From sequence record NC_105618.1: 50,465 nucleotides of DNA. One strand, 5' to 3'. The notes below the pieces were generated by a model. That model saw only the letters and a program-made list of their open reading frames with translations. It did no database searches and was not told the origin of the DNA. Below, piece after piece: positions 20,099 through 44,585 of this stretch; the stretch's first letter is position 1; each line of letters starts with the position of its first letter. This DNA is from a phage. The translations under genes and the position numbers were made by a program.

Positions 20099-20104
20099 AA
20101 TATA

Positions 20105-20128
20105 AGGGGCCGAGTGGCCCCTTTTTTA
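20105..20128. terminator. bidirectional intrinsic terminator
   Basis: GGGGCC-GAGT-GGCCCC hairpin flanked by A-run and T-run between convergent genes. Confidence 0.7.
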
Positions 20129-21093: not shown

Positions 21094-21324
21094 TTACCAC
21101 TCCTTAGTTTTGACTGAGATCTTACCGCTAAAGTTGCCCTGATTGTCGTCTGATGAAAGGCCTTTGAATCGCATGTCAACTTCTCCAGCAGGTACTTTCT
21201 TACCGTCAATGAATCGCATCATGCAAGATCCGTAAGCGTAAGTAACACAGTCGCCATTCTTAAGATTCTGAGCGCAACCAGTCAGGATGAACGCAGCGGC
21301 GATAATTGTGATTAACTTTTTCAT
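21094..21324 (-). CDS. small lipoprotein, putative superinfection-exclusion (Cor/Llp-like)
   Basis: signal peptide MKKLITIIAAAFILTGC with lipobox LTGC; about 60 aa mature; directly upstream of putative RBP. Confidence 0.5.
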   Translation of the reverse strand: MKKLITIIAAAFILTGCAQNLKNGDCVTYAYGSCMMRFIDGKKVPAGEVDMRFKGLSSDDNQGNFSGKISVKTKEW

Positions 21325-21851
21325 TTGTATGCCCTCGTCGTTAGTGTGTTTGAATTGTATGTCGCATTTACTTTTATTGCAATAGTTCGATTACAATTTT
21401 TTTCGCGTAACAGGTGTCTATTTTTGTAACTGGAAGTGGTGTTACAAAATCGACCTCATTCGACCGCAGGTAGATATGATAAAAACTCTATATAATATAT
21501 ATAGATAGATAATATTTAATTTTAGCTTTATATATATAATTATTGCTGTGTAACAGTTGTCTATCATGTAACAGGTGATTTGATTGATTCGTCAAATTTC
21601 TATCATATATGTTCAAAATTTAATCAATCTTGGTTCTATTCATGGATATCTGTGTATTTATAAGAAAAAGCGGTTACAAGTGTTACACAATATACACCAC
21701 ATAAAATCAAGGTTAATCTATTGATTCCATTGATGCTGGTTGTAACTTGAGCGATATAGACACACGATTACACACCAATTACATGTATTCGATTGACTAA
21801 ACGCTGTTAATGGCTATAATGGATTCATCGTAAACGAAGGAGATAAACGAA
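21325..21851. promoter_or_regulatory. AT-rich divergent control region with repeats
   Basis: 527 bp without ORFs; repeats GTAACAG(G/T)TGTCTAT and TCTATATAATATATATAG; contains sigma70-like promoter TTGACT-16-TATAAT. Confidence 0.6.
21793..21820 (+). promoter_or_regulatory. sigma70-like promoter for recombination operon
   Basis: TTGACT, 16 nt spacer, TATAAT, about 30 nt upstream of RBS of 21852 gene. Confidence 0.55.
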
Positions 21852-22916
21852 ATGTTCCAGGTATTCACATCAAACCAGCTTTCTAATGACGAGTATCATA
21901 GCAATGAAGGTTGGGCGGCAGAGTATGTAAGCGGATCGAGCCTTGCAGAAATTTATCAGACCTGCCCGGCTAACTGGCGATTCAAGAAGAACGAGACAAC
22001 GAAAGCGCTGGAGTTCGGTACTCAGTCTCATACCAACTTCGAGAGTCGCGATCTGTTTACTGCAACTTATGCTCGTTGTCCGGCTCCGTCAGAGTTTAAA
22101 GATCTCATTACTTCGCAAGCTGCACTGGCGGCAAAATTAAAATCCTTTGGCCTGAAAGGTACATCCGGTAAGCAGTACCCTGACCTCATCAAAATGATGG
22201 TTGATTGTGGTGAAGAACTCAATGTCCAATACCTGATTGAACTGATCGCAGAGGCTGAGGCGCGCGCTGAAGGAAAGCAACTCGTTGACGCTGATAAATA
22301 CGACGCCTGCATGAAGATGAGAGCCATACTTGAGCAAAATCCTGATCACGAGGCGTGCATCAACAGCGAAACGGCGCAGCGTGAGATCTCAATCTTTGGT
22401 GAGATATCCGGCGTCAAGGTTAAGGTTAGACTTGACCATCTGGACTACAAAGAGAATGTTCCAGGTCGCGTGCTGACTGGTTATGATGAGAATGGCGATC
22501 CGGTATTCGAAGACGTCATTTTCCCTGAAGCGCTGATTATCACTGACTTCAAAACCACGATGAGCGCCAACCCGCTAGAGTTCCCGAGACTGGCATACAA
22601 TCACGGGTATTATCTTAAAATGGCCTTGCAGCATGACTTATTGCGGCGTGCAATTCAGGCTGGAGCATTTGAAGGAAACTTCCCGGAAGATATCCCGATC
22701 GTAGTTCGATTGCTGGCACAGGAGAAAAAGGAGCCTTACATTGCCCTTGCTTATCGCATGACTATGGAGCAAATCAGAATCGGTCGCAATCAGTATATTA
22801 GCGTGGTACACACTTATAAGGCTTGCTCTGAGATGGACGTTTGGCCTGGATATGCTGGCGACGCAAGCGAGATCGAACTCGAAACGCCGTCATGGGTACG
22901 ATATCAAAACAAGTAA
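21852..22916 (+). CDS. putative recombination exonuclease (PD-(D/E)XK, RecE/YqaJ-like)
   Basis: VRLDHLD ... IITDFKT motifs consistent with D...(D/E)XK nuclease core; adjacent to ERF and SSB. Confidence 0.55.
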   Translation: MFQVFTSNQLSNDEYHSNEGWAAEYVSGSSLAEIYQTCPANWRFKKNETTKALEFGTQSHTNFESRDLFTATYARCPAPSEFKDLITSQAALAAKLKSFGLKGTSGKQYPDLIKMMVDCGEELNVQYLIELIAEAEARAEGKQLVDADKYDACMKMRAILEQNPDHEACINSETAQREISIFGEISGVKVKVRLDHLDYKENVPGRVLTGYDENGDPVFEDVIFPEALIITDFKTTMSANPLEFPRLAYNHGYYLKMALQHDLLRRAIQAGAFEGNFPEDIPIVVRLLAQEKKEPYIALAYRMTMEQIRIGRNQYISVVHTYKACSEMDVWPGYAGDASEIELETPSWVRYQNK

Positions 22917-22944
22917 ACGGCACAAATAGCTAAACAAATAATTA

Positions 22945-22968
22945 ATGAGGTGTTATAATGCACCTCAT
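22945..22968 (+). promoter_or_regulatory. extended -10 promoter element within hairpin
   Basis: TGtTATAAT inside stem-loop GAGGTG...CACCTC. Confidence 0.4.
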
Positions 22969-22990
22969 ACACCAATCAGGAGAAGTTAAG

Positions 22991-23638
22991 ATGCAATTAT
23001 CACCAGAAACAAACGAAATCCTCCCAGCACTGTTTAACGCTCGCAATAAATTTGCGAAAGCAAAGAAGGATGCAAAAAACAATCACCTGAAAAACTCATA
23101 CGCAACTCTTGATGCGATGATGGCGGCAGTTAGCCCAGCGCTAACCGACAACGATATCATGATCCTGCAATCAATGCTTGATACCAGCACGGAAACAACA
23201 TTCCATCTTGAGACTATGCTGATTCACAAATCCGGGCAATGGGCCAAATTCTTCATGATGATGCCGATTGCAAAACGAGATCCTCAAGGTGTAGGTTCCG
23301 CAATGACTTATGCTCGACGCTACTCTCTCGCTGCGGCGCTTGGTATTAGTCAGAGTGACGACGATGCACAGCTTGCAGTGAAATCTGTCAAGGACTGGAA
23401 AAAAGAACTTGATGCGTGCGAAGATATCGAATCACTGAAGGATGTATGGGCCAGCGCCTACCGTCAGACTGACACGGCTAGCAAGTCAATAATTCAGGAT
23501 CATTACAACGCACTGAAGGCGAAGTTTGAGATCGGCAAGGCTCGCGGCATTCGCCCGGCGCAACCGGAACAAAGAAAACAGGTTGAAGCAACAAGCGCTA
23601 AACCTGTACAATCTCAATCAATCACAAACTTCGAATAA
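22991..23638 (+). CDS. erf: putative single-strand annealing protein (ERF-like)
   Basis: position between exonuclease and SSB; AGGAGA RBS before in-frame ATG 22991; family by recollection only. Confidence 0.5.
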   Translation: MQLSPETNEILPALFNARNKFAKAKKDAKNNHLKNSYATLDAMMAAVSPALTDNDIMILQSMLDTSTETTFHLETMLIHKSGQWAKFFMMMPIAKRDPQGVGSAMTYARRYSLAAALGISQSDDDAQLAVKSVKDWKKELDACEDIESLKDVWASAYRQTDTASKSIIQDHYNALKAKFEIGKARGIRPAQPEQRKQVEATSAKPVQSQSITNFE

Positions 23639-23684
23639 TCACCCGGGCGGCTTTGGTCGCCCATAAATTTTAGGAGAGAAAATA

Positions 23685-24107
23685 ATGCATATTATCACTG
23701 GAGAGATCCGAAAAGAACCGAAGATTCTGGAACGTAACGGCGGCAATACTTACATCATCGAACTGGCAGAAAGCTACAAACCGCGCGATGGCGATCGCGA
23801 ATACACAAACTACACGTTCTTTTTTAGTGACGGTGGAAAGCCCGGACTTGCTGACTGGTATCGTGATGCGTTCCAGGTTGGTAGAGTGATCTCAGTATCG
23901 TGCGAAACGTTGAAGATCTCATCCCGTGAGCACAACGGAACTGTTTACAATTCATTGCAGGCGGCTGACTTCCCCAAACTTGTTTTCAGTCAAAGAGGTC
24001 AAGGTAATCAGCAACAACGAGCGCCGAATCAACAGCAACGCACTCAACAGCAATCACAACCAAAACCAAATCCTCAGTCAACTTTCGACGACGATATTCC
24101 GTTTTAA
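23685..24107 (+). CDS. ssb: single-stranded DNA-binding protein
   Basis: Gly/Gln-rich linker and C-terminal acidic tip DDDIPF characteristic of SSB. Confidence 0.8.
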   Translation: MHIITGEIRKEPKILERNGGNTYIIELAESYKPRDGDREYTNYTFFFSDGGKPGLADWYRDAFQVGRVISVSCETLKISSREHNGTVYNSLQAADFPKLVFSQRGQGNQQQRAPNQQQRTQQQSQPKPNPQSTFDDDIPF

Positions 24108-24109
24108 TA

Positions 24110-24140
24110 AGAAAGCCCCGCAATGCGGGGCTTTCTTTTA
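24110..24140. terminator. bidirectional intrinsic terminator
   Basis: AAAGCCCCGC-AAT-GCGGGGCTTT hairpin with T-run, between convergent genes. Confidence 0.7.
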
Positions 24141-26264
24141 TTCTTCTTTGCAACCTGTTGCGTGTGCTTCCTCCCACTCGCTTCTTTTTGCCACGTTTCT
24201 TACTTCTCGCTCCATCCTTTCTAATTCGGTGTTGTAAATGCTGTCAGGTGGCATTTCAACACGGATGCTAACGAAAGTATCATTCGGTATGTCGATCGGA
24301 TCGCCGTTCGAATAACCTTCCTTATCGTTCCTTGCGAACTTCGGCGCACTCTCATGCGTTCGATGGAATGTTTTAAGGATTATTGATCCATCGGCGTTTA
24401 CTTCATAATCAACCCACAATAGCGGCTGCTTGTTTATGTCAACCGGGATTTCGATTCCACCACTAATGCCACCCCAAGCAAGATCGGAGTTCAATCCTGT
24501 GCATCCTTCAATAAGGTACTCGCCAACCCCGATTCGCTGAACGGTGCAGCCCTCAGATTCGTCGTTGGTTTCGAAAGAATCCCTCTTAACCCTCACGATC
24601 GGTGAAGCTCGCTTGATAAATCCATTGACATCTACGGTTGTGTTTTTAGTTCCCCATAGAGCATTGACTTGAACCACGCCATTATTGAGGTCGCTATTGT
24701 TCGCGCCGATAGAGTAAACGTTAGCATTCCTGTAGTCAACTGAAAGTAATCCGAATGTGTCACCTGCAAGCATGTAGATAGCTGCGTTATACTGGAAGTT
24801 AGCTCCACCTGCAGAAGCCGCACCAGTATTACGCATAACCCTAGAACCTCCGGTATCGCGCATTCCCTTAATCCAACTTCCAATATTTGGTTGATTTATA
24901 TCCTTACCAGCACCTATTACCATAGTCTTATCACTATCTATTATAACCCTTCCGTCATATGCAACAGAGCTATCATCTCTCAACTGTAGTGCTCTATTAG
25001 ACGTTCCGTTTTTAAAATGAACATCATTTCCACCAACACTAATATAACCAGATTGATTTGGCCTTCCCTGATCGGAACGCTTAATTGTAATTCCGTATTC
25101 TACACTTGGGGATGCGCTAGTTAGAACCTCCTTCCACGCACCATAATTACCATTATTCATACATCTGAACATCATCCTTCCAGAACTTGAGTAAGATCCA
25201 GAGAGTTGAAATTTGTAATTGTTGCCCTGAGTGCAATTAAATGTTACAACACCCAAAAACTGACCATCACCAATACCGAATGGCTTTCCAAAGTTATCCC
25301 CATTACCAACATAGAATCCATTTGCCAGATTAACAGAATTACCCTCAGATAATGAGTTTACAAGTCCAGCACTTGATTGAAGGCCAAGCCCAAACTTATC
25401 TATATCAAGATTTGTTCTTGCAACGCTTTTGTTTGTCAATCCACTAAGATTACCATCCTTCGTTAACAGGTTGTCAGCGTTAATGCTATTAGCTGCGTCC
25501 TTTGCTTCCTGAGCGCTAACCGATGCCGCATCTTTTGCACTAACAGCATCGTCACGAGCCGCCTGTGCGTCGTTTTTTGCTGAGGTTGCAGTTTGCGCCG
25601 CCGCCTGGGCGTTGTTAACGTAACCTGACAGATCTCCTTTGGCGTCATTGATTGCTTTAATGGCTGCTTTCTCTTCCGTGTCGATGTGCGTAATCGCCGC
25701 TGATTCTTTAGAGCCTACATCTGTGATCGCTTGTTCTTTTGCTGCATTGATGCTACCGACAGCCCCGTCAACAATTTGCTGAACTTGGCCTTTGGTGGCT
25801 TTAGCTTCGTCACGTGCTGCATTCGCTGAGTCGCGAGCAAGTTCCGCTTGATTCTGTGCAGATTCAGCGGCTGATTTGTTCGCCTTAATTTCTTCAACGA
25901 TGCGGTTAAGGTTATCCATATCCAGACTCGCAATGATATCCATTGCCCCGGCAATCTCAGTCTCTTTGCTTTGATAGTATCGAAGCGTCTCAGCGACGTT
26001 TTGAGCCAATCCGTTAACAGTCAGTGAATCGTTAAGCAAGATCACATACTTACCGTCAGAGGCAGTCTGACCGTCGGTAGAGATAGCCTTTAATTCTGTG
26101 TCGCTAACGATATCGCTAATCACCGCCAGCTTAATTGGTTGCTCAAGGAATACGATAGTTGCACCTACGCGAATCAGAGCAAGCTGGTCTTTCCATTTTG
26201 TATCGGTTCCGTGAACCGTTCCGTCTGCATCCATTGATGCTGTACCGCGTCTATATAAAGCCAT
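24138..26264 (-). CDS. tail fibre protein
   Basis: 708 aa; Ala-rich coiled-coil segment; Gly/Asn/Ser-rich beta-type C-terminal region. Confidence 0.65.
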   Translation of the reverse strand: MALYRRGTASMDADGTVHGTDTKWKDQLALIRVGATIVFLEQPIKLAVISDIVSDTELKAISTDGQTASDGKYVILLNDSLTVNGLAQNVAETLRYYQSKETEIAGAMDIIASLDMDNLNRIVEEIKANKSAAESAQNQAELARDSANAARDEAKATKGQVQQIVDGAVGSINAAKEQAITDVGSKESAAITHIDTEEKAAIKAINDAKGDLSGYVNNAQAAAQTATSAKNDAQAARDDAVSAKDAASVSAQEAKDAANSINADNLLTKDGNLSGLTNKSVARTNLDIDKFGLGLQSSAGLVNSLSEGNSVNLANGFYVGNGDNFGKPFGIGDGQFLGVVTFNCTQGNNYKFQLSGSYSSSGRMMFRCMNNGNYGAWKEVLTSASPSVEYGITIKRSDQGRPNQSGYISVGGNDVHFKNGTSNRALQLRDDSSVAYDGRVIIDSDKTMVIGAGKDINQPNIGSWIKGMRDTGGSRVMRNTGAASAGGANFQYNAAIYMLAGDTFGLLSVDYRNANVYSIGANNSDLNNGVVQVNALWGTKNTTVDVNGFIKRASPIVRVKRDSFETNDESEGCTVQRIGVGEYLIEGCTGLNSDLAWGGISGGIEIPVDINKQPLLWVDYEVNADGSIILKTFHRTHESAPKFARNDKEGYSNGDPIDIPNDTFVSIRVEMPPDSIYNTELERMEREVRNVAKRSEWEEAHATGCKEE

Positions 26265-26342
26265 AGTATAAACTCCTTAAGTAAATAGCACGAATTGCTA
26301 AGCACTGATTTTATCATTGTGGTACTGGTCTTGCAATGGGCA

Positions 26343-26365
26343 ATAAAAAACCGCCAGAAGGCGGT
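26343..26365 (-). terminator. intrinsic terminator
   Basis: CCGCC-AGAAG-GCGG hairpin followed by T-run on minus strand after primase gene. Confidence 0.55.
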
Positions 26366-27300
26366 TAAAGTAGGTCGCTTGCTGAGAATAATTTGGCTTG
26401 CATCCCTGAGCGGTATCCTCCAGGATTTGGGATGATTATCTTCAATTGTCGATCGTCTGCCATATATAAAGTCTCTTTGTCTGAAGGTTCACACGCGACC
26501 CTTATCTCCCTTTCTCCTTTGTATCTGTACGCAACCATTTCGAGGTTTTCAGGAGTGAAGCAGGCCCATACCTCTTGTTTTGTGTGAAATGCAATATGCT
26601 GAGCATCAATCCAATTCAGGCATAAGTAGATCGCCTTTTCAGTTTTACCAGTCACAGCAACTGAGCAACTTGTGTATTTCTTCGCATAGAATGACTCTCT
26701 TCCTTCCTCATCAATAATCAAAATATTGCAGAACTCATCATCAAGACCGTCCTCGTGTACAAGTTGACACGGGATAGTGTGAAATAGGCTCTCCCCGCCA
26801 TCGTCGCGACGTTTTACGCCAACGTCGAATGATTCAGTAGGTAGCGACTCAAACATGCTTAGAGGAGTGTTTACTCGCTTCTCTGTGCGCTCCATGACTT
26901 TCATCACCGCTTCATGATCTGCCATCATGACATTGACGCCCGATACCGGAGTCCGGCGCGCTTTCTTGTTTGCCTTGACGATGTATTCCTGCGGAACTTT
27001 TCCGAGAAATCTTCCCAGGATATTTATGCATTCGCTATACGGCATACCAGTTAATTTCATCAACCAACCTATCCCGGAGTCGTTACCGCACGAGTTGCAG
27101 ATTGCACCGCCGTCTCCTGGGGTATTCAGATTGTCGGTCCAGCGAAAACGGTCCTTACCTCCACAGTTAGGGCAAGGCTGATGCTTCTTGTTGAATACCT
27201 CGTTAGGCAATCCGCAGACTGACTGAAAAGCCTCACGCCATAACCCCTTCATATACGGCAAGACGTCCTCTTTCTGAAACATCATAAACTCTTCGTTCAC
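26365..27300 (-). CDS. DNA primase (zinc-binding, P4-type)
   Basis: CPNCGGKDRFRW ... CNSCGN zinc-binding motifs typical of phage/plasmid primase N-terminal domains. Confidence 0.65.
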   Translation of the reverse strand: MNEEFMMFQKEDVLPYMKGLWREAFQSVCGLPNEVFNKKHQPCPNCGGKDRFRWTDNLNTPGDGGAICNSCGNDSGIGWLMKLTGMPYSECINILGRFLGKVPQEYIVKANKKARRTPVSGVNVMMADHEAVMKVMERTEKRVNTPLSMFESLPTESFDVGVKRRDDGGESLFHTIPCQLVHEDGLDDEFCNILIIDEEGRESFYAKKYTSCSVAVTGKTEKAIYLCLNWIDAQHIAFHTKQEVWACFTPENLEMVAYRYKGEREIRVACEPSDKETLYMADDRQLKIIIPNPGGYRSGMQAKLFSASDLL

Positions 27301-27310
27301 TTCCAGATCT

Positions 27311-27350
27311 CCAAATAAAAAACGCGTAGAAGGATGTTAACCCGCTACGC
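27311..27350 (-). terminator. intrinsic terminator
   Basis: ACGCGTAG...CTACGCGT hairpin followed by T-run on minus strand. Confidence 0.55.
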
Positions 27351-27360
27351 GTCGTTTGTT

Positions 27361-27813
27361 TTAACTAAAAATGCTATTTGTCGTTCCAATATCTTCCTTC
27401 TTCACGACCCGCATAAACTTCTTGTTTTTGCAGCGCTTCTCAAGGCACTTTCCGTTCCCATCAAACTTCAGATCGAATCGCAGCCATGCGGCCCGAAATC
27501 CTTTGCAACCCTGTCGGCGATAAGCACGATGCGCCGCTTCAGCGCCTTGCCAGGAAATCATATTTCGATCCTTCCAACCTTGAACCGTCTGGTTGCTAAC
27601 TTTCAGAGCCTTTGCACAAGCCGCCGGACCACCATAATATTCAATAAGAGCATCCAATCGCGCCCTCAGTCCTGCGCGCGTTTCTTCTTTATGGATATAA
27701 AATCCGCAGCGCTGGCGGGGCTTTTTGTCTTTACCGCGTCGTGTTCCGTTGTTACCATTGATGTGACGTTTATCGATTTCACCAGTAGACTCTGCGATAC
27801 GTTTCATATTCAT
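27361..27813 (-). CDS. putative HTH DNA-binding regulator
   Basis: KALKVSNQTVQGWKDR helix-turn-helix-like segment; in-frame ATG 27813 preceded by AGGAGA; palindromic motif lies in its 5' leader. Confidence 0.45.
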   Translation of the reverse strand: MNMKRIAESTGEIDKRHINGNNGTRRGKDKKPRQRCGFYIHKEETRAGLRARLDALIEYYGGPAACAKALKVSNQTVQGWKDRNMISWQGAEAAHRAYRRQGCKGFRAAWLRFDLKFDGNGKCLEKRCKNKKFMRVVKKEDIGTTNSIFS

Positions 27814-27827
27814 CTTAATTCTCCTGT

Positions 27828-27870
27828 AGCACTTTTTGCTAAAAACGTTTACTGTATGCCGTGTATTATA
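27828..27870 (+). promoter_or_regulatory. palindromic-motif promoter module (helicase operon)
   Basis: TAGCA-N5-TGCTA, 22 nt, TATTAT; overlaps RBS/start of divergent HTH gene. Confidence 0.5.
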
Positions 27871-27894
27871 TCGTAAACGATACAACGATTCAAA
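27866..27894 (-). promoter_or_regulatory. sigma70-like promoter of HTH regulator gene
   Basis: minus-strand TTGAAT, 17 nt spacer, TATAAT; approximate coordinates. Confidence 0.45.
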
Positions 27895-27907
27895 GGATTA
27901 AATAGCC

Positions 27908-29926
27908 GTGACAATTAACATCAAAAAGCAAATCGCATTACTTGGCGAGGACTATATAAAACGCACTCAAGAACGATTCACTGTTGGTGAGGTCGTTCCG
28001 TATCCGTACCAGGTTGTTGCTTATGCTGAGATCGCAAAACGCCTATCAAATTATGAGCATCCATTCTTTGTTAAAGCGTCAGTATCGGCGGGTAAGACCA
28101 TCATTTTTGCTATGGTTGCAAAGCAGTGTCAAAAAATGGGCTTGAAAATGCTTGTGCTGGCACGCCAGGGTGAGATTGTCGATCAGGATAGTGAAGAGAT
28201 CGACAATTTCGGAGTGACTAACTCTATATTCTCAGCGTCACTTGGAATCAAGTCTTGCTACTTCCCGATCGTGGTAGGCTCTGAGGGCACTGTTGCAAAT
28301 GGTTTAAATAATGAGTTGGCTGATTTTGTCCCTCACGTAATCGGGATAGATGAATGTCACCAGGTGGATTGGGAAGACCTTGCGCAAGCCATAGACGGAA
28401 AGGAAACAATGGAACAGATGCGGGGAGAGAAAGGGAAGATTATCATGGACGGTGATACTCCTCTGATTGGTAATGATGGAAAGCCTCTTCTTGGAACTAA
28501 GCGAAGCCAGTACACGATCGTAATCATGGAGATGATGCGTCGCTGTAAAGAGGTTCACGGGCATGACCTCAGAATATTTGGAATGACTGGATCTGAATTT
28601 AGGGGAGTTGTTCCAATCCTAGTTGAAAATCCAAAAGCATTGGGATTCTGGCGCGAGCGAGTTACTGATATCGACACTAACTATCTTATTGAGTTTGGCT
28701 CTGTCGTTCCGACGATATTCGGCTCAACAGACGGAGTTCACTACGATCTGGATAAGTTCAAGGCGTCTAGCGAGGACGGGGTTCAGGACTTTACAGAGAA
28801 AGATATGAAGGCGATGGAAGATGAGATCCTTCATGATAAATCTCTGACTCAGCGAATCATGCAAATGGTTGCCAAAAAGGCTGAAGAGCGTAACGCTGTT
28901 TTGATTACGTGCGCCGGGGTGCGTCACTGTAAAGAGGCTGCTGCGGCACTTCCTCCAGGGAGCACCTATGCAATCATCACTGGCGACACAGACACAAAAA
29001 CTCGCAAGAAGATTCTGGATGACGTAAGGGCTGGGAAGATTAAATATACCTTTCAGGTAATGGCGCTAACGACTGGCGTTAACGTTCCAAATTGGGATTT
29101 CAGTGTCATACTTCGAAAGATAGGATCGCTCACGCTGTTAATTCAACTTTTGGGTAGGGGTATGCGACTGCTTAAATCCTGGCAGGTTGCTGAAGGGATG
29201 GTTAAGCAAGACCATCTTGTATGGGATTTCGCTGGCACTATGGATGAGTTGGGGCAGCTTTATTTCGATCCGATACTTGAGCAGGCACAATTTCAGAAGC
29301 GATTCGAAAACGGCAAAGACCCGAAAACGTGTCCGAAGTGTGGTTGCGTAAATAGCTTTTACGCTCGCCGATGCGTTAACGTTATCGACGGTGAGCGATG
29401 CGATCACTTCTGGACTTCTCAGATTTGCGAGGACCAGGTTGATGAGCGAACCGGGAAAATCCTTGTTAAAGGTTGCGGTGCCGAGAATGACGTTGTCGCG
29501 AGAGTATGTCGTTGTTGTGATGTTTCTCTCGTCGATCCTAACCTGAAGTTGTCCGGTAAGGCGTACACCAAGAATGACTGGTACGAGGTAAAGAATTTTG
29601 AGGTTACGCTAACCAAAAACCAAAAGGGCATTATATACAAATACACGCTGATTAATGATGACGGTGATGAGTTCAAGGCGTATGAAAAATTCTTCCCTGA
29701 GTCAGACTCTAAGATTTGCGGTACGCTATGGAAAACAAAAGGTGTATTACCTCATGTGTCAGATCCTAAAATGCGCCGCTACTTTATCGGAATGAAGAAC
29801 GCCATAAAGATCGTGCAATACTCTCATCATATAGCGCATCCGGTACGCGTTACTCATAGACGCAACCAGAAGAAAGAGGATATTATTTCACGCAAAGATT
29901 TCGGTATGGAGGATATCCCGGAATGA
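27908..29926 (+). CDS. ATP-dependent helicase (SF2, DEAD/DEAH-like)
   Basis: Walker A SVSAGKT, DEAH-like IDECHQ, C-terminal Cys clusters. Confidence 0.8.
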   Translation: MTINIKKQIALLGEDYIKRTQERFTVGEVVPYPYQVVAYAEIAKRLSNYEHPFFVKASVSAGKTIIFAMVAKQCQKMGLKMLVLARQGEIVDQDSEEIDNFGVTNSIFSASLGIKSCYFPIVVGSEGTVANGLNNELADFVPHVIGIDECHQVDWEDLAQAIDGKETMEQMRGEKGKIIMDGDTPLIGNDGKPLLGTKRSQYTIVIMEMMRRCKEVHGHDLRIFGMTGSEFRGVVPILVENPKALGFWRERVTDIDTNYLIEFGSVVPTIFGSTDGVHYDLDKFKASSEDGVQDFTEKDMKAMEDEILHDKSLTQRIMQMVAKKAEERNAVLITCAGVRHCKEAAAALPPGSTYAIITGDTDTKTRKKILDDVRAGKIKYTFQVMALTTGVNVPNWDFSVILRKIGSLTLLIQLLGRGMRLLKSWQVAEGMVKQDHLVWDFAGTMDELGQLYFDPILEQAQFQKRFENGKDPKTCPKCGCVNSFYARRCVNVIDGERCDHFWTSQICEDQVDERTGKILVKGCGAENDVVARVCRCCDVSLVDPNLKLSGKAYTKNDWYEVKNFEVTLTKNQKGIIYKYTLINDDGDEFKAYEKFFPESDSKICGTLWKTKGVLPHVSDPKMRRYFIGMKNAIKIVQYSHHIAHPVRVTHRRNQKKEDIISRKDFGMEDIPE

Positions 29927-34940: not shown

Positions 34941-35348
34941 TCAAATTCTTCTTTCGTAAGCTGGAGCCTTGCGCACAATTCGACGTTCCGATCTATCAAC
35001 GTTTCTACGTTCGCTAAACAAGTCTTCATCACTCATTTCTCCAATGTGCATCATTTCCCATGTATATCGATTGTTGTAGCCATCAATACACATAAGCCTC
35101 ATCATTACCGGGCGCTTAATTTTCCCCTTGCACCAGTAAACCCCATCCTTGCGATCCAAGTAACCCTCAGTCACGCAACGAGCGCAAAACTCCTTAGATA
35201 GCGCGCTTGTAAATTCACGGCGAGTCATTCCGGCGGCCTTAGCAAATCGCTCACTTTCCTTGTGGGCGTATATAAATTTCGCTATGTGCTGCCGGGTGTA
35301 TTTGTCGTAACCTTCGCAGAACCGGAACAGATCTAAAAGAAGAAGCAT
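34941..35348 (-). CDS. hypothetical protein (possible DNA-binding)
   Basis: track ORF; basic C-terminus; coupled to upstream gene stop. Confidence 0.4.
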   Translation of the reverse strand: MLLLLDLFRFCEGYDKYTRQHIAKFIYAHKESERFAKAAGMTRREFTSALSKEFCARCVTEGYLDRKDGVYWCKGKIKRPVMMRLMCIDGYNNRYTWEMMHIGEMSDEDLFSERRNVDRSERRIVRKAPAYERRI

Positions 35349-35352
35349 ATTA

Positions 35353-36921
35353 TTAACCCATCAGTCGAGGATTGATGAAAACAATATCATCAATACGGCA
35401 AGTGTAGTTCATTTCTTCGAGCGTGATCAGCAAACTATCGATTCGCTCAGCTACTTTCTGTTGACCATTAAACGGCGTAACGTTCCGACACTTCGCAACG
35501 ATGCTATGAATCGGTGCTCGGCCTTTGTTCTTCTTCGCGATCTCAGTGATAACATCAATCAGCTTTCGAGATTCAGCCTCATCACCAGCATACCCGGCTG
35601 CGCTTGCGGACGAAAGATAAGTCCTGGAAAGCTCATTGAAAATCATAATCGCTTCCTGCATTGTCTCAAGATCAATCTCACGATTAGATCGGTTCGGTGA
35701 TTCGCCCTCCCAATTCTTGATCGTGTGAAGAACTGAAGCAATGCGCAAAGCGTGCTTATCGAACTTACCAAGATGACCGCGTAGCATTGAGTGAGAGTAT
35801 TTCCCCCCGGCGGCGAAATCCGGCTCCATAGCCTGACGCGCCAGGTTTAATTCACGCATAGCGTTACGGCTAACAGAAAGAACAACGTTTTCCTCCTTCA
35901 TGATGTTATGCACAAGTCGGTAATATTTGCTAACCAATCCGCGATCGACTTCCTTATACAGTGCATCACCATTTTCATCGCAAAGAATACGAGTACCTAA
36001 AAGCGGTTCCTCGCGAACCAACAGGAAACGCTCAGATACACCGATTCCTCGCTGGCCTGCATCCATTATACCCTTGATTGTTTCATCCTGAGCAATTACG
36101 CAGATCGAACCTACCGGGCACAGAGACAAGTTGTTGTCCTGATTTGAGCGAGCTACCTCCATATGGTTTTTATCCCACGCCTTAAGAATAAGCTCACTGT
36201 TAGATTTCTTATCTGAACCGCCATACGTAAGCCCGAGCAATGTATTTATTGCCGTTGCCTCATCAGAGATAACGGAAAAGTGGCCCTGAACAGCGGCTAC
36301 TTTCGCAAGACCTTCCGGTGTAGGATCTGATACAGCAAAAACAATATCAGCCATCTTCTTGATCTTCTCTTCCAGTTTTTCTTTGTCCTCGTACAGTGCC
36401 GCAGTCGTATTACCCTTCGGGTCGTTTTTAATTTCCTTCTCGACCTGACGTAGCTGACTGGTTAATCGGGTGCGTTCCTTTTTGCGCTCTTCATTCAGTC
36501 GCTGAATCTCCGCACGCATAGGTGTAATCGCCGCTGAGTTAATCGCGGATTTACCTGTTGACGGTGGCTGGCTGATTACCATGTAAAGAGCGGTCGGTTG
36601 CTCTTCTCCGTGATATTGCACCCAAAACTTACCGAGCATCGCGGCTGAGATGCACCCGATGAAATGAGCGTACGCGGATGACACCGGGAACTGGACTGAT
36701 TCAGCTTTTGCTTTTGCATATTCGAATACCAGGTTATCGCCACCTAACGAAATCAGAGGGAACTTATCGTTGCCGCTATTGATATCGATCGGATCTTGCC
36801 AAAATGAAACTGAGTCACCATAGCTGTTTTCACGAATTGCGATCGCCACCGGATTAACTCCAGTGCTATTGGCGATCTCAATAATCTGTTGGTAATTCAG
36901 TTTTGGCTTAATATTAAACAT
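35353..36921 (-). CDS. putative P-loop ATPase
   Basis: deviant Walker A QPPSTGKS and Walker B-like FSVISDEAT; AAGGAG RBS before in-frame ATG 36921 (track start 36984 runs through promoter module). Confidence 0.55.
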   Translation of the reverse strand: MFNIKPKLNYQQIIEIANSTGVNPVAIAIRENSYGDSVSFWQDPIDINSGNDKFPLISLGGDNLVFEYAKAKAESVQFPVSSAYAHFIGCISAAMLGKFWVQYHGEEQPTALYMVISQPPSTGKSAINSAAITPMRAEIQRLNEERKKERTRLTSQLRQVEKEIKNDPKGNTTAALYEDKEKLEEKIKKMADIVFAVSDPTPEGLAKVAAVQGHFSVISDEATAINTLLGLTYGGSDKKSNSELILKAWDKNHMEVARSNQDNNLSLCPVGSICVIAQDETIKGIMDAGQRGIGVSERFLLVREEPLLGTRILCDENGDALYKEVDRGLVSKYYRLVHNIMKEENVVLSVSRNAMRELNLARQAMEPDFAAGGKYSHSMLRGHLGKFDKHALRIASVLHTIKNWEGESPNRSNREIDLETMQEAIMIFNELSRTYLSSASAAGYAGDEAESRKLIDVITEIAKKNKGRAPIHSIVAKCRNVTPFNGQQKVAERIDSLLITLEEMNYTCRIDDIVFINPRLMG

Positions 36922-38690: not shown

Positions 38691-39054
38691 ACAATGCCTC
38701 CTTAACACGATCGGCAATGCAGGAGTTTACAGTGATTGAGTAGTTAGCCACGCCCCATAATGCAATATTGCCAAGCTCGGTACGCATAGATGGATTATTA
38801 AGCTGAATGATTGTCTCGCCAGTGTGGTTATCGACGAAGCGAGACACGCCAGAACGGTCCACCACGCGCGTTACGCGACTCACACACTCCATTGCATCAC
38901 TTACACCATAATAAGCGCTAATGGCGGCTCTCACGGCCTTCTCTTGCTTGTTATAAATCTTGCGCGCGATGTTCTCGATCGCAACGTGCTCTTTATCATC
39001 AGTCTTGATTGCCGTGCTGGCTGAGAAGTCAAGGTCAGTGAACTTCTTAAACAT
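38683..39054 (-). CDS. hypothetical protein
   Basis: in-frame ATG 39054 preceded by GAGGAAAGAA; promoter module upstream. Confidence 0.4.
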   Translation of the reverse strand: MFKKFTDLDFSASTAIKTDDKEHVAIENIARKIYNKQEKAVRAAISAYYGVSDAMECVSRVTRVVDRSGVSRFVDNHTGETIIQLNNPSMRTELGNIALWGVANYSITVNSCIADRVKEALYE

Positions 39055-39085
39055 GATTCTTTCCTCGCTTGCTGTTGATGGGATG

Positions 39086-39127
39086 ACTATACCAGCCATC
39101 ACGGATTCGCGTTTAGCAAAAAGTGCT
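39086..39127 (-). promoter_or_regulatory. palindromic-motif promoter module
   Basis: minus strand TAGCA-N5-TGCTA then TATAGT. Confidence 0.45.
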
Positions 39128-39299
39128 ATTCGATGATCTCTTTCTCAACAATCGTTGTGTAGTCGTACATGCTCTTTCCGGCGCGAATCTGTTCCTTCAT
39201 TCTGTTCTCGTACTGCTTTGCCTTCTTTTCATCAAGGTGAACAGTCTCTACATATTCACCCTCATATTGAACGCCGCCCATAACGATATATACGATCAT
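39123..39299 (-). CDS. hypothetical small protein (58 aa)
   Basis: ATGA overlap with upstream stop; not in track. Confidence 0.25.
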
Positions 39300-41014: not shown

Positions 41015-41048
41015 TTCTGCTTCCTCTACTGATTGGTTGATGACCAGA

Positions 41049-41092
41049 ACTATACCCTGCCAACATGGATAAGTCGTTAGCAAAAAATGCTA
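41049..41092 (-). promoter_or_regulatory. palindromic-motif promoter module
   Basis: minus strand TAGCA-TTTTT-TGCTA, about 23 nt, TATAGT. Confidence 0.45.
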
Positions 41093-41701
41093 TTCCAATA
41101 ATTGCTCATTATTCCATCAATAGTGGAATAGTTGGAATAATTGCGATCCCGATTGATCTCGAATGATGAAACGTGATTATTGCATGGTGTGCAACAGTTG
41201 GTTGATTTGTTGCTGAGAATGCAATGATTGTGAGAGGGAGGATTTAGTGTTACCCGGTTCGCCTGGTAGTCATCTCCATTTTTAGCAAAAAGTGCTATCG
41301 ATTACACTTTAACTTGTCACGACTGTAATATTTGTCTAGAATCGCCATTGTGACAAAATTACACACTGTGACGCCTCTAAATATACATATAGATATATGT
41401 ATCTATATAATATATATAGTGTTTTTTTTATTTATATATATAGATAATTATATTGTAATAGCTGTGTATAGTTGTCTTACATTGTCTAGCGTACTGTTGG
41501 CATATTTCTATCTGCATGTTTATATATACAGTAATTTTTTGTGAGCTATATATTTCTATAGTGACTCTATACAGCTAGACAAATGTTACACAGCTTAAAA
41601 TTGGCTCGCAGGCGTTGACATATCTGCATTGCGCTGTCACAATGGCAATTGTTGACGCGTTATGACACCATTTACACACGAATAGACAAAGAGGTTATAT
41701 T
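41084..41701. promoter_or_regulatory. AT-rich divergent control region with repeats
   Basis: about 618 bp without ORFs of 60 aa or more; shares TCTATATAATATATATAG and GCTGTGTA..AGTTGTCT blocks with 21325-21851; GGAATA(A/G)TTG repeats. Confidence 0.6.
41283..41297. promoter_or_regulatory. isolated palindromic motif in control region
   Basis: TAGCA-AAAAG-TGCTA with no -10-like hexamer at the usual spacing. Confidence 0.35.
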
Positions 41702-42217: not shown

Positions 42218-42232
42218 GCACTGAACGGTAAA

Positions 42233-42275
42233 TAGCACTTTTTGTTAAAACCGGATCGGGATGGCTTGGTATAGT
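42233..42275 (+). promoter_or_regulatory. palindromic-motif promoter module
   Basis: TAGCA-N5-TGTTA, 22 nt, TATAGT in hairpin GGGAT...ATCCC. Confidence 0.5.
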
Positions 42276-42306
42276 TATCCCATCGGCAACGAATTAGGAA
42301 ACGAAG

Positions 42307-42501
42307 ATGGAAACGCAAATTGACGTAGTGGTTGTTCAGCGCGATTCAACTCACGAGAAGGGTCTGTTCAAGAAAGGAACCAAAATCACTATCGACCTTG
42401 AGGATATGGTTGCGTATCACTCGGGTCTTACCTGGAATGTGGTGCGAGTTGGCAGCGACTACAAACTCAAAGGCTTTAACACTTACTTTGCTGAGGCTTA
42501 A
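42307..42501 (+). CDS. hypothetical protein
   Basis: track ORF. Confidence 0.4.
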   Translation: METQIDVVVVQRDSTHEKGLFKKGTKITIDLEDMVAYHSGLTWNVVRVGSDYKLKGFNTYFAEA

Positions 42502-43833: not shown

Positions 43834-44025
43834 ATGGCTGATTTTATGCACCAAATGATTGCAGTATTCAAAGGCAGTGATGATGAGGAAGTTAAAGAGT
43901 GCTTTACCGTTGACAAGCCTTATAACGCGTCACTAACCAGCTTCGGGAATATCTCATTGCTTGATGATAATGGCGATCCCTGGATATTCGACGAAGACAC
44001 TGATTGCTTCGAGATTAAAGAATAG
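43834..44025 (+). CDS. small acidic protein
   Basis: 63 aa, Asp/Glu-rich. Confidence 0.35.
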   Translation: MADFMHQMIAVFKGSDDEEVKECFTVDKPYNASLTSFGNISLLDDNGDPWIFDEDTDCFEIKE

Positions 44026-44066
44026 CACTTTTTGTTAAAACTCAATATTGGGGTTGCGATATAGTA
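44024..44066 (+). promoter_or_regulatory. palindromic-motif promoter module
   Basis: TAGCA-N5-TGTTA, 22 nt, TATAGT. Confidence 0.5.
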
Positions 44067-44096
44067 ACTCCATCGACAACGAACGAGGACGAGAAC

Positions 44097-44585
44097 ATGA
44101 AAATCAAATTACTTTGCACTGGCGGTTACAAAGGCTTTACTCGCGACCTGGAAGCGGACCCTATCGTGGTTGACGCTGTGAAGTGTGATGATAGCCTGGG
44201 CGGCTACCGCGTTAATGTTGACGACCTGGTTAAAGCTGGCGTGTACGATCTGGATTATGGACTTTCGGTTAGCCCGGTAGTCGGCCCGGCAGATTTCAAC
44301 GAGAAGGACGGAACGATGTTCTTTTTCGATCGGGAAGTCCAGGCAAACATCAAGCCTCGCAAGGTTCGACTTCTCAACAATGGCGGTTATCCTATGCGAC
44401 CAGGTTATGAGAATCGCACGTTCCCGGTGATTGTTGACTTTGAAGAAATCACCGCGCACTTAGCTTATATCAACGGTGAACAGCTTAATGCTGTTGGATT
44501 CGTGGGAGGCATGAATCAAGAGGCGCTATGCTTCTTCCACTGTAAAGCCGAGCCGTTCGATATTGAGTGTGAGTTAGTATACTAA
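44097..44585 (+). CDS. hypothetical protein
   Basis: track ORF; N-terminus MKIKLLCTGGYKG resembles repeated small-domain family. Confidence 0.45.
   Translation: MKIKLLCTGGYKGFTRDLEADPIVVDAVKCDDSLGGYRVNVDDLVKAGVYDLDYGLSVSPVVGPADFNEKDGTMFFFDREVQANIKPRKVRLLNNGGYPMRPGYENRTFPVIVDFEEITAHLAYINGEQLNAVGFVGGMNQEALCFFHCKAEPFDIECELVY

Follow-up and report, generated by a model that had tools for sequence, protein, structure and literature searches.

Region I, the 527-bp gap at positions 21325-21851 of NC_105618.1, and the right part of a second AT-rich region, Region II, are on sequence alignment colinear paralogues over ~400 bp. The window, by which we mean the whole stretch of 50,465 bp analysed here, comprises the complete genome of a T1-like phage of the genus Tunavirus (family Drexlerviridae), and around Region I is 99.5% identical to Escherichia phage vB_EcoS_SA12KD (SA12KD) and ~91% identical to T1. 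The two copies form a module that, judging from the way its short repeated words differ between genera, is almost certainly a protein-bound cis-acting site, and the sequence comparisons make Region I the best candidate so far for a T1-type replication origin or master control site. An original prediction, made from the letters alone, had described Region I as a gene-free divergent control region that may hold operators and/or a replication origin. The anatomy described below likewise suggests operators, an origin or both, and the sequence features on which that prediction drew were all found, where it had placed them or within 1-2 bases.

Anatomy of the two-copy module

Region II has a leftward early operon on one side and, on the other, a rightward early operon continuing as far as the terminase genes. 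When Region I and Region II are aligned directly by the Smith-Waterman method they score 50, compared with 24.5 +/- 2.9 (maximum 40) for shuffled sequences. A profile built from 17 distinct Tunavirus Region I copies and searched with nhmmer matches 41277-41675 colinearly through its positions 47-457 (E = 3.6e-4), and matches Region II of SA12KD with E = 4.3e-6. Local alignment and profile search were used instead of a first MAFFT alignment of both regions, which was in poor register. Beyond the TA run, the blocks common to the two copies are CGATTACA, TGT(T/G)ACAAAAT, an 18-mer (TCTATATAATATATATAG) and ATATATAGATAAT, together with GCTGTGTA.AGTTGTCT, CAWATTTCTATC, ACAARTGTTACACA and a promoter-proximal TTAC cluster. 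Formal alignment and profile search thus uphold the proposed relationship to a second region at ~41.4 kb. Where a single, almost repeated block had been proposed, the 18-mer is indeed exact in both regions, but the likeness as a whole is a colinear paralogy of ~400 bp that recurs throughout the family. The parts of the two regions are as follows.

21325-21851, Region I, 527 bp, the gap between the cor-like lipoprotein gene and recE
21354-21382, minus strand, Pcor, candidate leftward promoter for cor, TTGCAA-17-TACAAT (consensus scan, 9/12)
21386-21450, left cluster of TTACA-type words
21407-21421, copy 1 of a composite palindrome, TAACA-GG-TGTCTA, in the left word cluster
21424-21447, inverted pair TTGTAAC-N10-GTTACAA, in the left word cluster
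21487-21545, TA-rich core, candidate DNA unwinding element, its first 18 bases (TCTATATAATATATATAG) identical in Region II
21547-21577, right word cluster adjoining the core, with copy 2 of the composite palindrome at 21550-21564 and GTAACAGGTG at 21567-21577
21578-21630, nearly invariant block ATTTGATTGATTCGTCAAATTTCTATCATATATGTTCAAAATTTAATCAATC, from the conservation profile
21671-21785, promoter-side words: GGTTACAAGTGTTACACAA at 21671-21691, GGTTGTAACTT at 21738-21748 and GATTACACACCAATTACATG at 21766-21785
21714-21726, minus strand, a single IHF consensus site
21793-21820, plus strand, PrecE, rightward promoter of recE-erf-ssb, TTGACT-16-TATAAT (consensus match, 11/12)
~41015-41701, Region II
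41277-41675, plus strand, paralogous module copy in the right part of Region II, with the core at 41393-41452, the 18-mer at 41402-41419 and copy 3 of the palindrome at 41575-41589 (minus strand)
41615-41643, plus strand, Region II promoter TTGACA-17-CACAAT with TG

Among 60-bp duplex segments of the genome, the two cores have the lowest stability (41393-41452, z = 5.8; 21483-21542, z = 5.6), the next least stable unrelated segment having z = 3.6; this is the property looked for in an unwinding element. Across 17 Tunavirus sequences the Region I core does not vary, whereas the adjoining cor gene is highly variable. TATAAT-ATATATAGATAG from the core is retained in phages IME347 (Badaguanvirus) and SRT8 (Sertoctavirus), and a CTATATA box in the copies of TLS, Rtp and Webervirus, so that one or other of these, accompanied by an (ATT)n/TATATATA box, recurs in all genera examined. 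The exact 18-mer, at 21487-21504 and 41402-41419, has an expectation of 0.04.

The composite palindrome GTAACAG(G/T)TGTCTAT, two copies of which had been predicted, is present at 21407-21421 and 21550-21564, with a third copy carrying two mismatches on the minus strand of Region II; these three matches compare with 0.09 expected. The further TGTTACA-type repeats that had been proposed are there as well, in the form of about ten TTACA-type words. Region I has ten TTACA words in its 527 bp, located on either side of the core, a density of 19 per kb compared with 2.2 per kb in the genome. Regions I and II together hold most of the genome's occurrences of several such words (TATATATA, 7/7; TGTTACA, 5/7; TTGTCTA, 5/7; TTACACA, 6/7), and for the enriched words composition-matched first-order Markov simulations give P of ~0.000-0.018. 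The word positions of the left cluster are retained in IME347 and SRT8, with base changes common to the sites, and the right cluster aligns with GCTGTGTATAGTTGTCT in Region II. Within the nearly invariant block, TGAT.CG.TCAA.TTTCTA is retained in IME347 and SRT8, and CAWATTTCTATC in Region II. No CRP-like TGTGA-N6-TCACA sites and no clustering of GATC were found. GATC occurs at 266 sites in the genome (5.4 per kb), the phage encodes a Dam-type methylase, and the 527 bp of Region I contain no GATC at all.

The near-consensus promoter TTGACT-16-TATAAT, which had also been predicted, is PrecE, and a consensus scan ranks it as the best sigma-70 match in the whole genome. Its -35 and -10 elements are kept in IME347, SRT8 and TLS, its position is annotated as a promoter in the SA12KD, Chapo and T1 records, and a conserved leader and ribosome-binding site lie to its right. 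The segment containing the candidate Pcor is almost invariant in 17 Tunavirus sequences. PrecE and Pcor, which stand back to back in Region I, are both called as consensus matches. The description of Region I as a divergent control region holds to the extent that the region is non-coding, carries a strong rightward promoter and has a plausible Pcor, but the divergence itself is not conserved: the layout is absent in TLS and differs in Webervirus.

Conservation across the Drexlerviridae

Four complete genomes were scanned end to end, representing three subfamilies plus Webervirus, and in all four (4/4) the best match to Region I anywhere in the genome was Region II.

Window (Tunavirus), score 50, against a genome median of 20
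TLS (Tempevirinae), score 63
Rtp (Braunvirinae), score 141, over 123 bp at ~80% identity
Klebsiella phage 1513 (Webervirus), score 171, over 140 bp at ~88% identity

Direct alignment of the two regions gave scores of 96 in SRT8 and 69 in IME347. To these we added 26 genomes assembled from IMG/VR by pairing loci fetched via recE with loci fetched via terS, with 10-kb flanks; terS was used since identity across genera is only 14-16% for the gene that comes first on the right of Region II. In 21/26 of them the best match of the region upstream of recE was an AT-rich segment 8-9.6 kb upstream of terS, always in the orientation of terS, with scores of 52-114 against a background of ~20 and next-best scores of 23-50. 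In the five failures, the end of the contig or record leaves <10 kb upstream of terS. The similarity of Region I to Region II within a genome exceeds that of Region I to Region I between subfamilies, which points to homogenisation or to a shared trans-acting factor.

The sequences of the words differ from genus to genus, while in every genus examined they lie on both sides of the core and in both orientations.

T1 type: [TG][GA]TTACA and TGTCTA, two half-sites forming TAACA-NN-TGTCTA palindromes
SRT8: ATTACA
IME347: GTTACA, GTGACA
Rtp: GTTAC(G/A)C
TLS: GTGAACA, TGGAACA
Webervirus: GTAAGAT/ATCTTAC, perfect palindromes

In phage 1513, 14/26 of the TCTTAC words in the genome fall within the two modules. 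The positions of the words are conserved among the T1 type, IME347 and SRT8, and at 6 of ~8 orthologous sites GTAAC in the T1 type corresponds to GTAAT in SRT8. Such a change in concert at orthologous sites suggests that the words co-evolve with a sequence-specific binding protein, and it is the strongest evidence that they are binding sites.

The neighbours of the module are less constant than the module itself. The gene to the left of Region I is cor in the T1 type, a tail-fibre gene in TLS and the primase gene in Webervirus, and in TLS no leftward gene adjoins the Region I copy. By contrast, the module is in every case co-oriented with and attached to its downstream operon, whether this is recE-erf-ssb or the early operon that leads toward terS. 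As the order of module, promoter and operon is constant whereas the left neighbours vary, a divergent layout is not the conserved property. The distance from the core to the start codon is ~240-345 bp, with 142 bp in Region I of Rtp. Relative to the structural genes, Webervirus has the recE block in inverted orientation, and the AT-rich module has moved along with recE, so that it now lies inside the replication cluster, between primase and recE. In this genus recE-erf-ssb directly follows the regulator and primase genes (Klebsiella phage 1513, locus L054, 39675-43867, compared with 21852-29926 of the window).

Candidate functions and binding proteins

By analogy with other phages, we tentatively read Region I and its copy in Region II as replication origins, or as an origin plus an auxiliary site, of the iteron-plus-unwinding-element type, situated by strong early promoters. 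It is the least stable core, the arrays of words and the existence of two similar copies, as in the Bacillus phage SPP1, that favour origin function. The words flank the core on both sides, are enriched and change in concert, as an array of initiator sites would, and their binding by a protein is predicted. In this model, a phage-encoded sequence-specific protein would bind the words as TGT(T/C)(A/T)(A/C) half-sites (TGTTACA, TGTCTA), some of them paired as ACA-NN-TGT palindromes, the best candidate for this binder being a winged-helix-like homologue of gp10. The DUF3987 helicase, of superfamily 6 (SF6), would then be loaded at the core, which would melt, allowing a primase of the T7 gp4 type to prime and host DNA polymerase III to elongate. 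In this phage the core lies between candidate back-to-back promoters (in Region I, Pcor and PrecE; in Region II, leftward direct-repeat cassettes and the 41615 promoter), so that negative supercoiling added by divergent transcription could help the core to melt, and PrecE itself may be tuned by the words closest to it. Here we infer from sequence that a protein binds, which protein it is and that replication initiates at the module, and origin function and operator function are not mutually exclusive.

The closest parallel is provided by SPP1, in which oriL and oriR carry similar repeat arrays and an AT-rich unwinding element and are both bound by gp38 (PMC6316719). It has been proposed that oriR arrests forks, leading to recombination-dependent synthesis of concatemers by an exonuclease, an annealing protein, a protein that binds single-stranded DNA (SSB) and a resolvase (PMC6316719). 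Like SPP1, the phage studied here belongs with virulent pac-type siphoviruses having two distant, similarly organised origin or origin-like copies, and one of the SPP1 copies is likewise intergenic among late or accessory genes. The SPP1 set of 5'-3' exonuclease, annealing protein, SSB and junction resolvase is also matched here, by recE-erf-ssb downstream of Region I and by a VRR-NUC gene. However, there is no sequence or protein homology between the two systems, and function has been demonstrated for SPP1 whereas here it is deduced from sequence. SPP1 employs a DnaB-type helicase with a loader in place of the DUF3987 (SF6) helicase, superfamily 2 (SF2) helicase and T7-type primase found here. 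Its repeats are direct, whereas the words of the module occur in both orientations and are partly palindromes, and its oriL lies within the initiator gene, whereas both copies of the module are intergenic and promoter-linked.

Separated cis sites are also a feature of satellite phage P4, whose ori and crr contain the same octamer words and are bound by the alpha primase-helicase, a single protein that combines an archaeo-eukaryotic primase (AEP), a superfamily 3 (SF3) helicase and a winged helix. The words of TLS (TGTTCAC) resemble the P4 octamer TGTTCACC, possibly by coincidence. The P4 crr works in either orientation, unlike the present module, which keeps one. The primary origin of T7, oriF and oriG of T4, and the ori of lambda, which is activated by PR, each place an AT-rich melting region by strong promoters, and both T4 and T7 have more than one origin. 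These transcription-linked origins are found downstream of the promoter that activates them and function without an iteron array, whereas the core of the module lies upstream of, or between, promoters and is flanked by word arrays.

Several observations weigh against paired origins. The T1-type words are short and degenerate, with a core of 5-6 bp, and Regions I and II prefer partly different variants (GTTACA, 7 vs 1; TGTCTA, 3 vs 4). The module is always co-oriented and ends in the promoter of an operon, even in the rearranged Webervirus, which fits a promoter-control element at least equally well. Cumulative GC skew has a local minimum at Region II and a local maximum near Region I, a pattern that is confounded by gene orientation. 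Finally, neither Region I nor Region II contains a DnaA box (TTWTNCACA), and GATC is missing from Region I despite its frequency of 5.4 per kb genome-wide. For these last two reasons (0 GATC in Region I compared with 266 in the genome), an oriC-type origin dependent on DnaA is excluded.

A rather improbable variant of this scheme, again drawn by analogy, divides the roles between the copies. Early theta replication would start from the Region II copy, which falls within the terminal redundancy at the mature genome's left end, while the Region I copy, recognised by the same binder, would be a programmed site of fork arrest or breakage that hands replication to recE-erf-ssb and triggers the switch to concatemers. 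If true, the element would be a cis-acting switch of replication mode, retained with its recombination operon across the Drexlerviridae.

The main rival to paired origins, in our view somewhat less likely, is a long-range transcriptional control region in which no replication starts. The words would then be operators or activator sites through which a phage regulator switches the two strongest host-type promoters, PrecE and the one for early rightward transcription, on or off together, and the TA-rich core would be a bendable or UP-like element, or a site for a nucleoid protein. In keeping with this, the module stands directly upstream of its operon in the same orientation, at a fairly constant distance between core and start codon, and terminates in the promoter with the genome's best sigma-70 match. 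Immediately upstream of the -35 element of PrecE there are two words (21766-21785), the Region II -35 has a composite palindrome 26 bp upstream of it, and the words are almost absent elsewhere in the genome, as expected for a small regulon. However, most words are 100-400 bp from the promoter and none overlaps a -35 or -10, and a strictly conserved, minimally stable TA core of 60 bp, placed 300 bp upstream, has no obvious role in repression. Moreover, the annotated regulator, a gp23-like protein with a Cro-type helix-turn-helix (HTH; PHROG 2856), does not co-vary with the words, and the palindrome upstream of ~25 other promoters is a different one, TAGCA-N5-TGCTA, of which Region I has no copy. 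Packaging or recombination offers an improbable alternative, in which the module would be a recognition array for the small terminase subunit, TerS, like those of P1 or SPP1 pac, or else a programmed break or fork-arrest site that feeds RecE, Erf and SSB rather than a site of initiation. The pac site of P1 does consist of clusters of repeats around a central region. The module copy in Region II lies ~100 bp to the right of the starts of the T1, JMPW1, Shfl1 and SH2 records; the HTH segment of TerS, like the words, is alike in the T1 type and IME347 and different in SRT8; and Region I is directly upstream of recombination genes, fork arrest being the mode of action proposed for SPP1 oriR. On the other hand, the starts of those four records, at ~41166-41267, fall outside the module, in the left part of Region II, where there are separate repeats. 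None of the records compared begins at Region I, record starts being only a proxy for real ends, and T1 has been described as having one pac site. The repeats of this left part (41085-41270) comprise four copies of TATTCCA/TGGAATA and inverted pairs of ATTGCA/TGCAAT, along with two GATC sites, and TATTCC/GGAATA words are also present in Region II of Klebsiella phage 1513. These repeats adjoin the record starts; they are better pac candidates than the module, and they are probably the pac or terminase-recognition part of Region II, distinct from the copy that resembles Region I. The annotation of one T1 record marks its first 2800 bp as a repeat region, in agreement with the size of the T1 terminal redundancy.

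Very little probability attaches to a gene product of Region I, whether small protein or non-coding RNA. Region I contains only open reading frames (ORFs) of 41-46 aa. One of these, a 46-aa ORF at 21584-21724 on the plus strand, is annotated as CPTT1_049 in the T1 GenBank record and is open in 17/17 Tunavirus sequences, but it has a TTG start, its substitutions fall on the three codon positions as 9/18/12 without third-position bias, and it is disrupted by indels in IME347 and SRT8. CPTT1_049 is therefore probably not a gene. The minus-strand ORFs are likewise disrupted in several relatives. Over the whole window, Rfam 15 gave no match at its gathering score and a scan for tRNA and tmRNA genes found none, while RNA-folding z-scores on both strands of Regions I and II are unremarkable (-2.5 to +1.5). 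The proposal that Region I lacks genes is thus borne out, tiny ORFs without codon bias being all that it contains. Least probable of all is that there is no specific element, Region I being an AT-rich spacer between promoters whose likeness to Region II arises from low-complexity TA runs. It is true that (TA)n supplies part of the alignment score and that the score of 50 in the window is only moderately above the best shuffle at 40. Nevertheless, the non-TA blocks GCTGTGTA.AGTTGTCT, CAWATTTCTATC and ACAARTGTTACACA are common to both copies, Rtp, phage 1513 and SRT8 give far higher scores, conservation is stronger in Region I than in the gene beside it, and the words change in concert at orthologous sites.

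Proteins considered in relation to the words and the core include the following.

34941-35348, minus strand, gp10-like protein (T1 gp10-like, 135 aa), candidate word binder, directly after the DUF3987 gene in the same operon
35353-36921, minus strand, DUF3987 putative replicative helicase (SF6, MCM-related; Pfam DUF3987, E = 1.7e-42)
27361-27813, minus strand, gp23-like 'transcriptional regulator', 150 aa, between primase and SF2 helicase (PHROG 2856; weak Cro-type HTH match)

The genome encodes a primase, an SF6 helicase and an SF2 helicase, with the VRR-NUC gene following that of the SF2 helicase. The AlphaFold2 model of the gp10-like protein (predicted local distance difference test score, pLDDT, 73; predicted template modelling score, pTM, 0.70) is winged-helix-like, with three helices, the third of them long (residues 43-60), followed by a beta hairpin. 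The top Foldseek matches to this model are winged-helix domains, none of them significant (E >= 0.6). In its predicted recognition helix, the T1 type and IME347 have FTSALSKEF where SRT8 has FVSLMSKEF, paralleling the split in the words, and across 33 genomes the helix variants mostly follow the word classes. Against the assignment, the helices of locus L048 and TLS are one residue apart, yet their words differ. Furthermore, the gp10-like helix, the C-terminus of DUF3987 and the HTH of TerS all show the same pattern, with the T1 type resembling IME347 and SRT8 differing. On the modelled fold the gp10-like protein is the best candidate binder, albeit a weak one.

The DUF3987 family has been described as replicative helicases of SF6, related to MCM and bearing a C-terminal winged helix (PMC4889955), and helicase activity has been demonstrated for one member (PMC11724360). 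The C-terminal columns are the least conserved part of DUF3987 among four genera. Searches of PDB sequences with the gp23-like and DUF3987 proteins returned nothing useful. The gp23-like protein, the obvious candidate for the second regulator of the original prediction, was considered and rejected as binder of the words, since IME347 and SRT8 have one and the same HTH in this protein despite their unlike words, while the T1 type and IME347 have words in common but different HTHs. Across subfamilies it is 53-55% identical; its N-terminal arm (DKRxINGNNG.RRGKDKK) is basic, a Cro-like HTH is present, and the C-terminal part is conserved and contains Cys. It has no solved relative. It is instead a candidate regulator of the TAGCA-N5-TGCTA cassettes described below, and not of the Region I words.

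Genomic setting, other repeats and significance

Regions I and II are the only stretches of the genome that stay at <=30% G+C over hundreds of bases, and in the near-identical SA12KD record they are the only annotated gene-free gaps longer than ~300 bp. Region I is flanked as follows.

21094-21324, minus strand, cor-like lipoprotein gene (superinfection exclusion), left flank; from the ORF list, PHROG 4281 and 1119 (Cor), and the lipoprotein/Cor annotation in relatives
21852-22916, plus strand, recE, the first gene to the right
21852-24107, plus strand, operon for a RecE-like exonuclease, an Erf annealing protein and SSB (Pfam DUF3799/PDDEXK and ERF; PHROG SSB)

On the left, the cor-like gene and a membrane-protein gene are both transcribed leftward. 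Strong terminator-like hairpins at 20104-20123 (called on both strands) and 24109-24137 enclose the cor and recE operons, which suggests that Region I and its two flanking operons are a self-contained unit inserted between tail genes.

A second family of repeats in the genome differs from the module in both sequence and architecture. A 21-nt intergenic direct repeat of the TLS type, aaATAGCACnnnTTGnTAAAA, has been described in the Drexlerviridae with its function unassigned (PMC11447400). In the window, the corresponding repeat, ATAGCACnnnTTGnTAA, has 28 matches compared with 3.1 expected, none of the 28 being in Region I; there are ~25 cassette sites, two of them in Region II. Examples of these cassettes are the following.

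42232-42311, plus strand
44022-44101, plus strand
39050-39129, minus strand
41077-41093, minus strand
41282-41298, minus strand

The repeat is a palindrome, TAGCA-N5-TG(C/T)TA, that occurs once per gene cassette, upstream of the gene in the direction of transcription. Approximately 10 nt downstream of it is a variable inverted repeat in which 5/6 pairs change on both sides. When the structure was specified by hand, its covariation score was reached by 0/500 shuffles; RNAalifold, run on the same cassettes, did not recover the variable hairpin. The inverted repeat encloses an extended -10 resembling TGnTATAGT, after which come a CATCGAAACGAG-like leader and a ribosome-binding site. As ~23 bp separate the TTGnTA from the -10, more than a normal -35 allows, the TAGCA palindrome looks like a site for an activator or a repressor.

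Although T1 belongs to the seven classical T phages and is notorious as a contaminant of laboratories, its origin is still unreported in the T1-like genome papers surveyed. These papers, a survey that leaves aside the T1 2004 and Rtp 2006 genome papers, report no origin or offer guesses from GC skew only. The TLS paper, which states that TLS has no iterons, is the only Drexlerviridae paper in the literature searched that mentions iterons. Elements of this kind are known; the apparent novelty lies in a family-wide two-copy module in T1-like phages, with genus-specific words and candidate binders. Two candidate cis elements now have coordinates, words and candidate binders, which makes the start or control of T1-type replication directly testable, and the difference between GTTACA in T1 and IME347 and ATTACA in SRT8 provides a natural swap of specificity. 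Looking forward, the same coordinates are handles for engineering or blocking T1-type phages.

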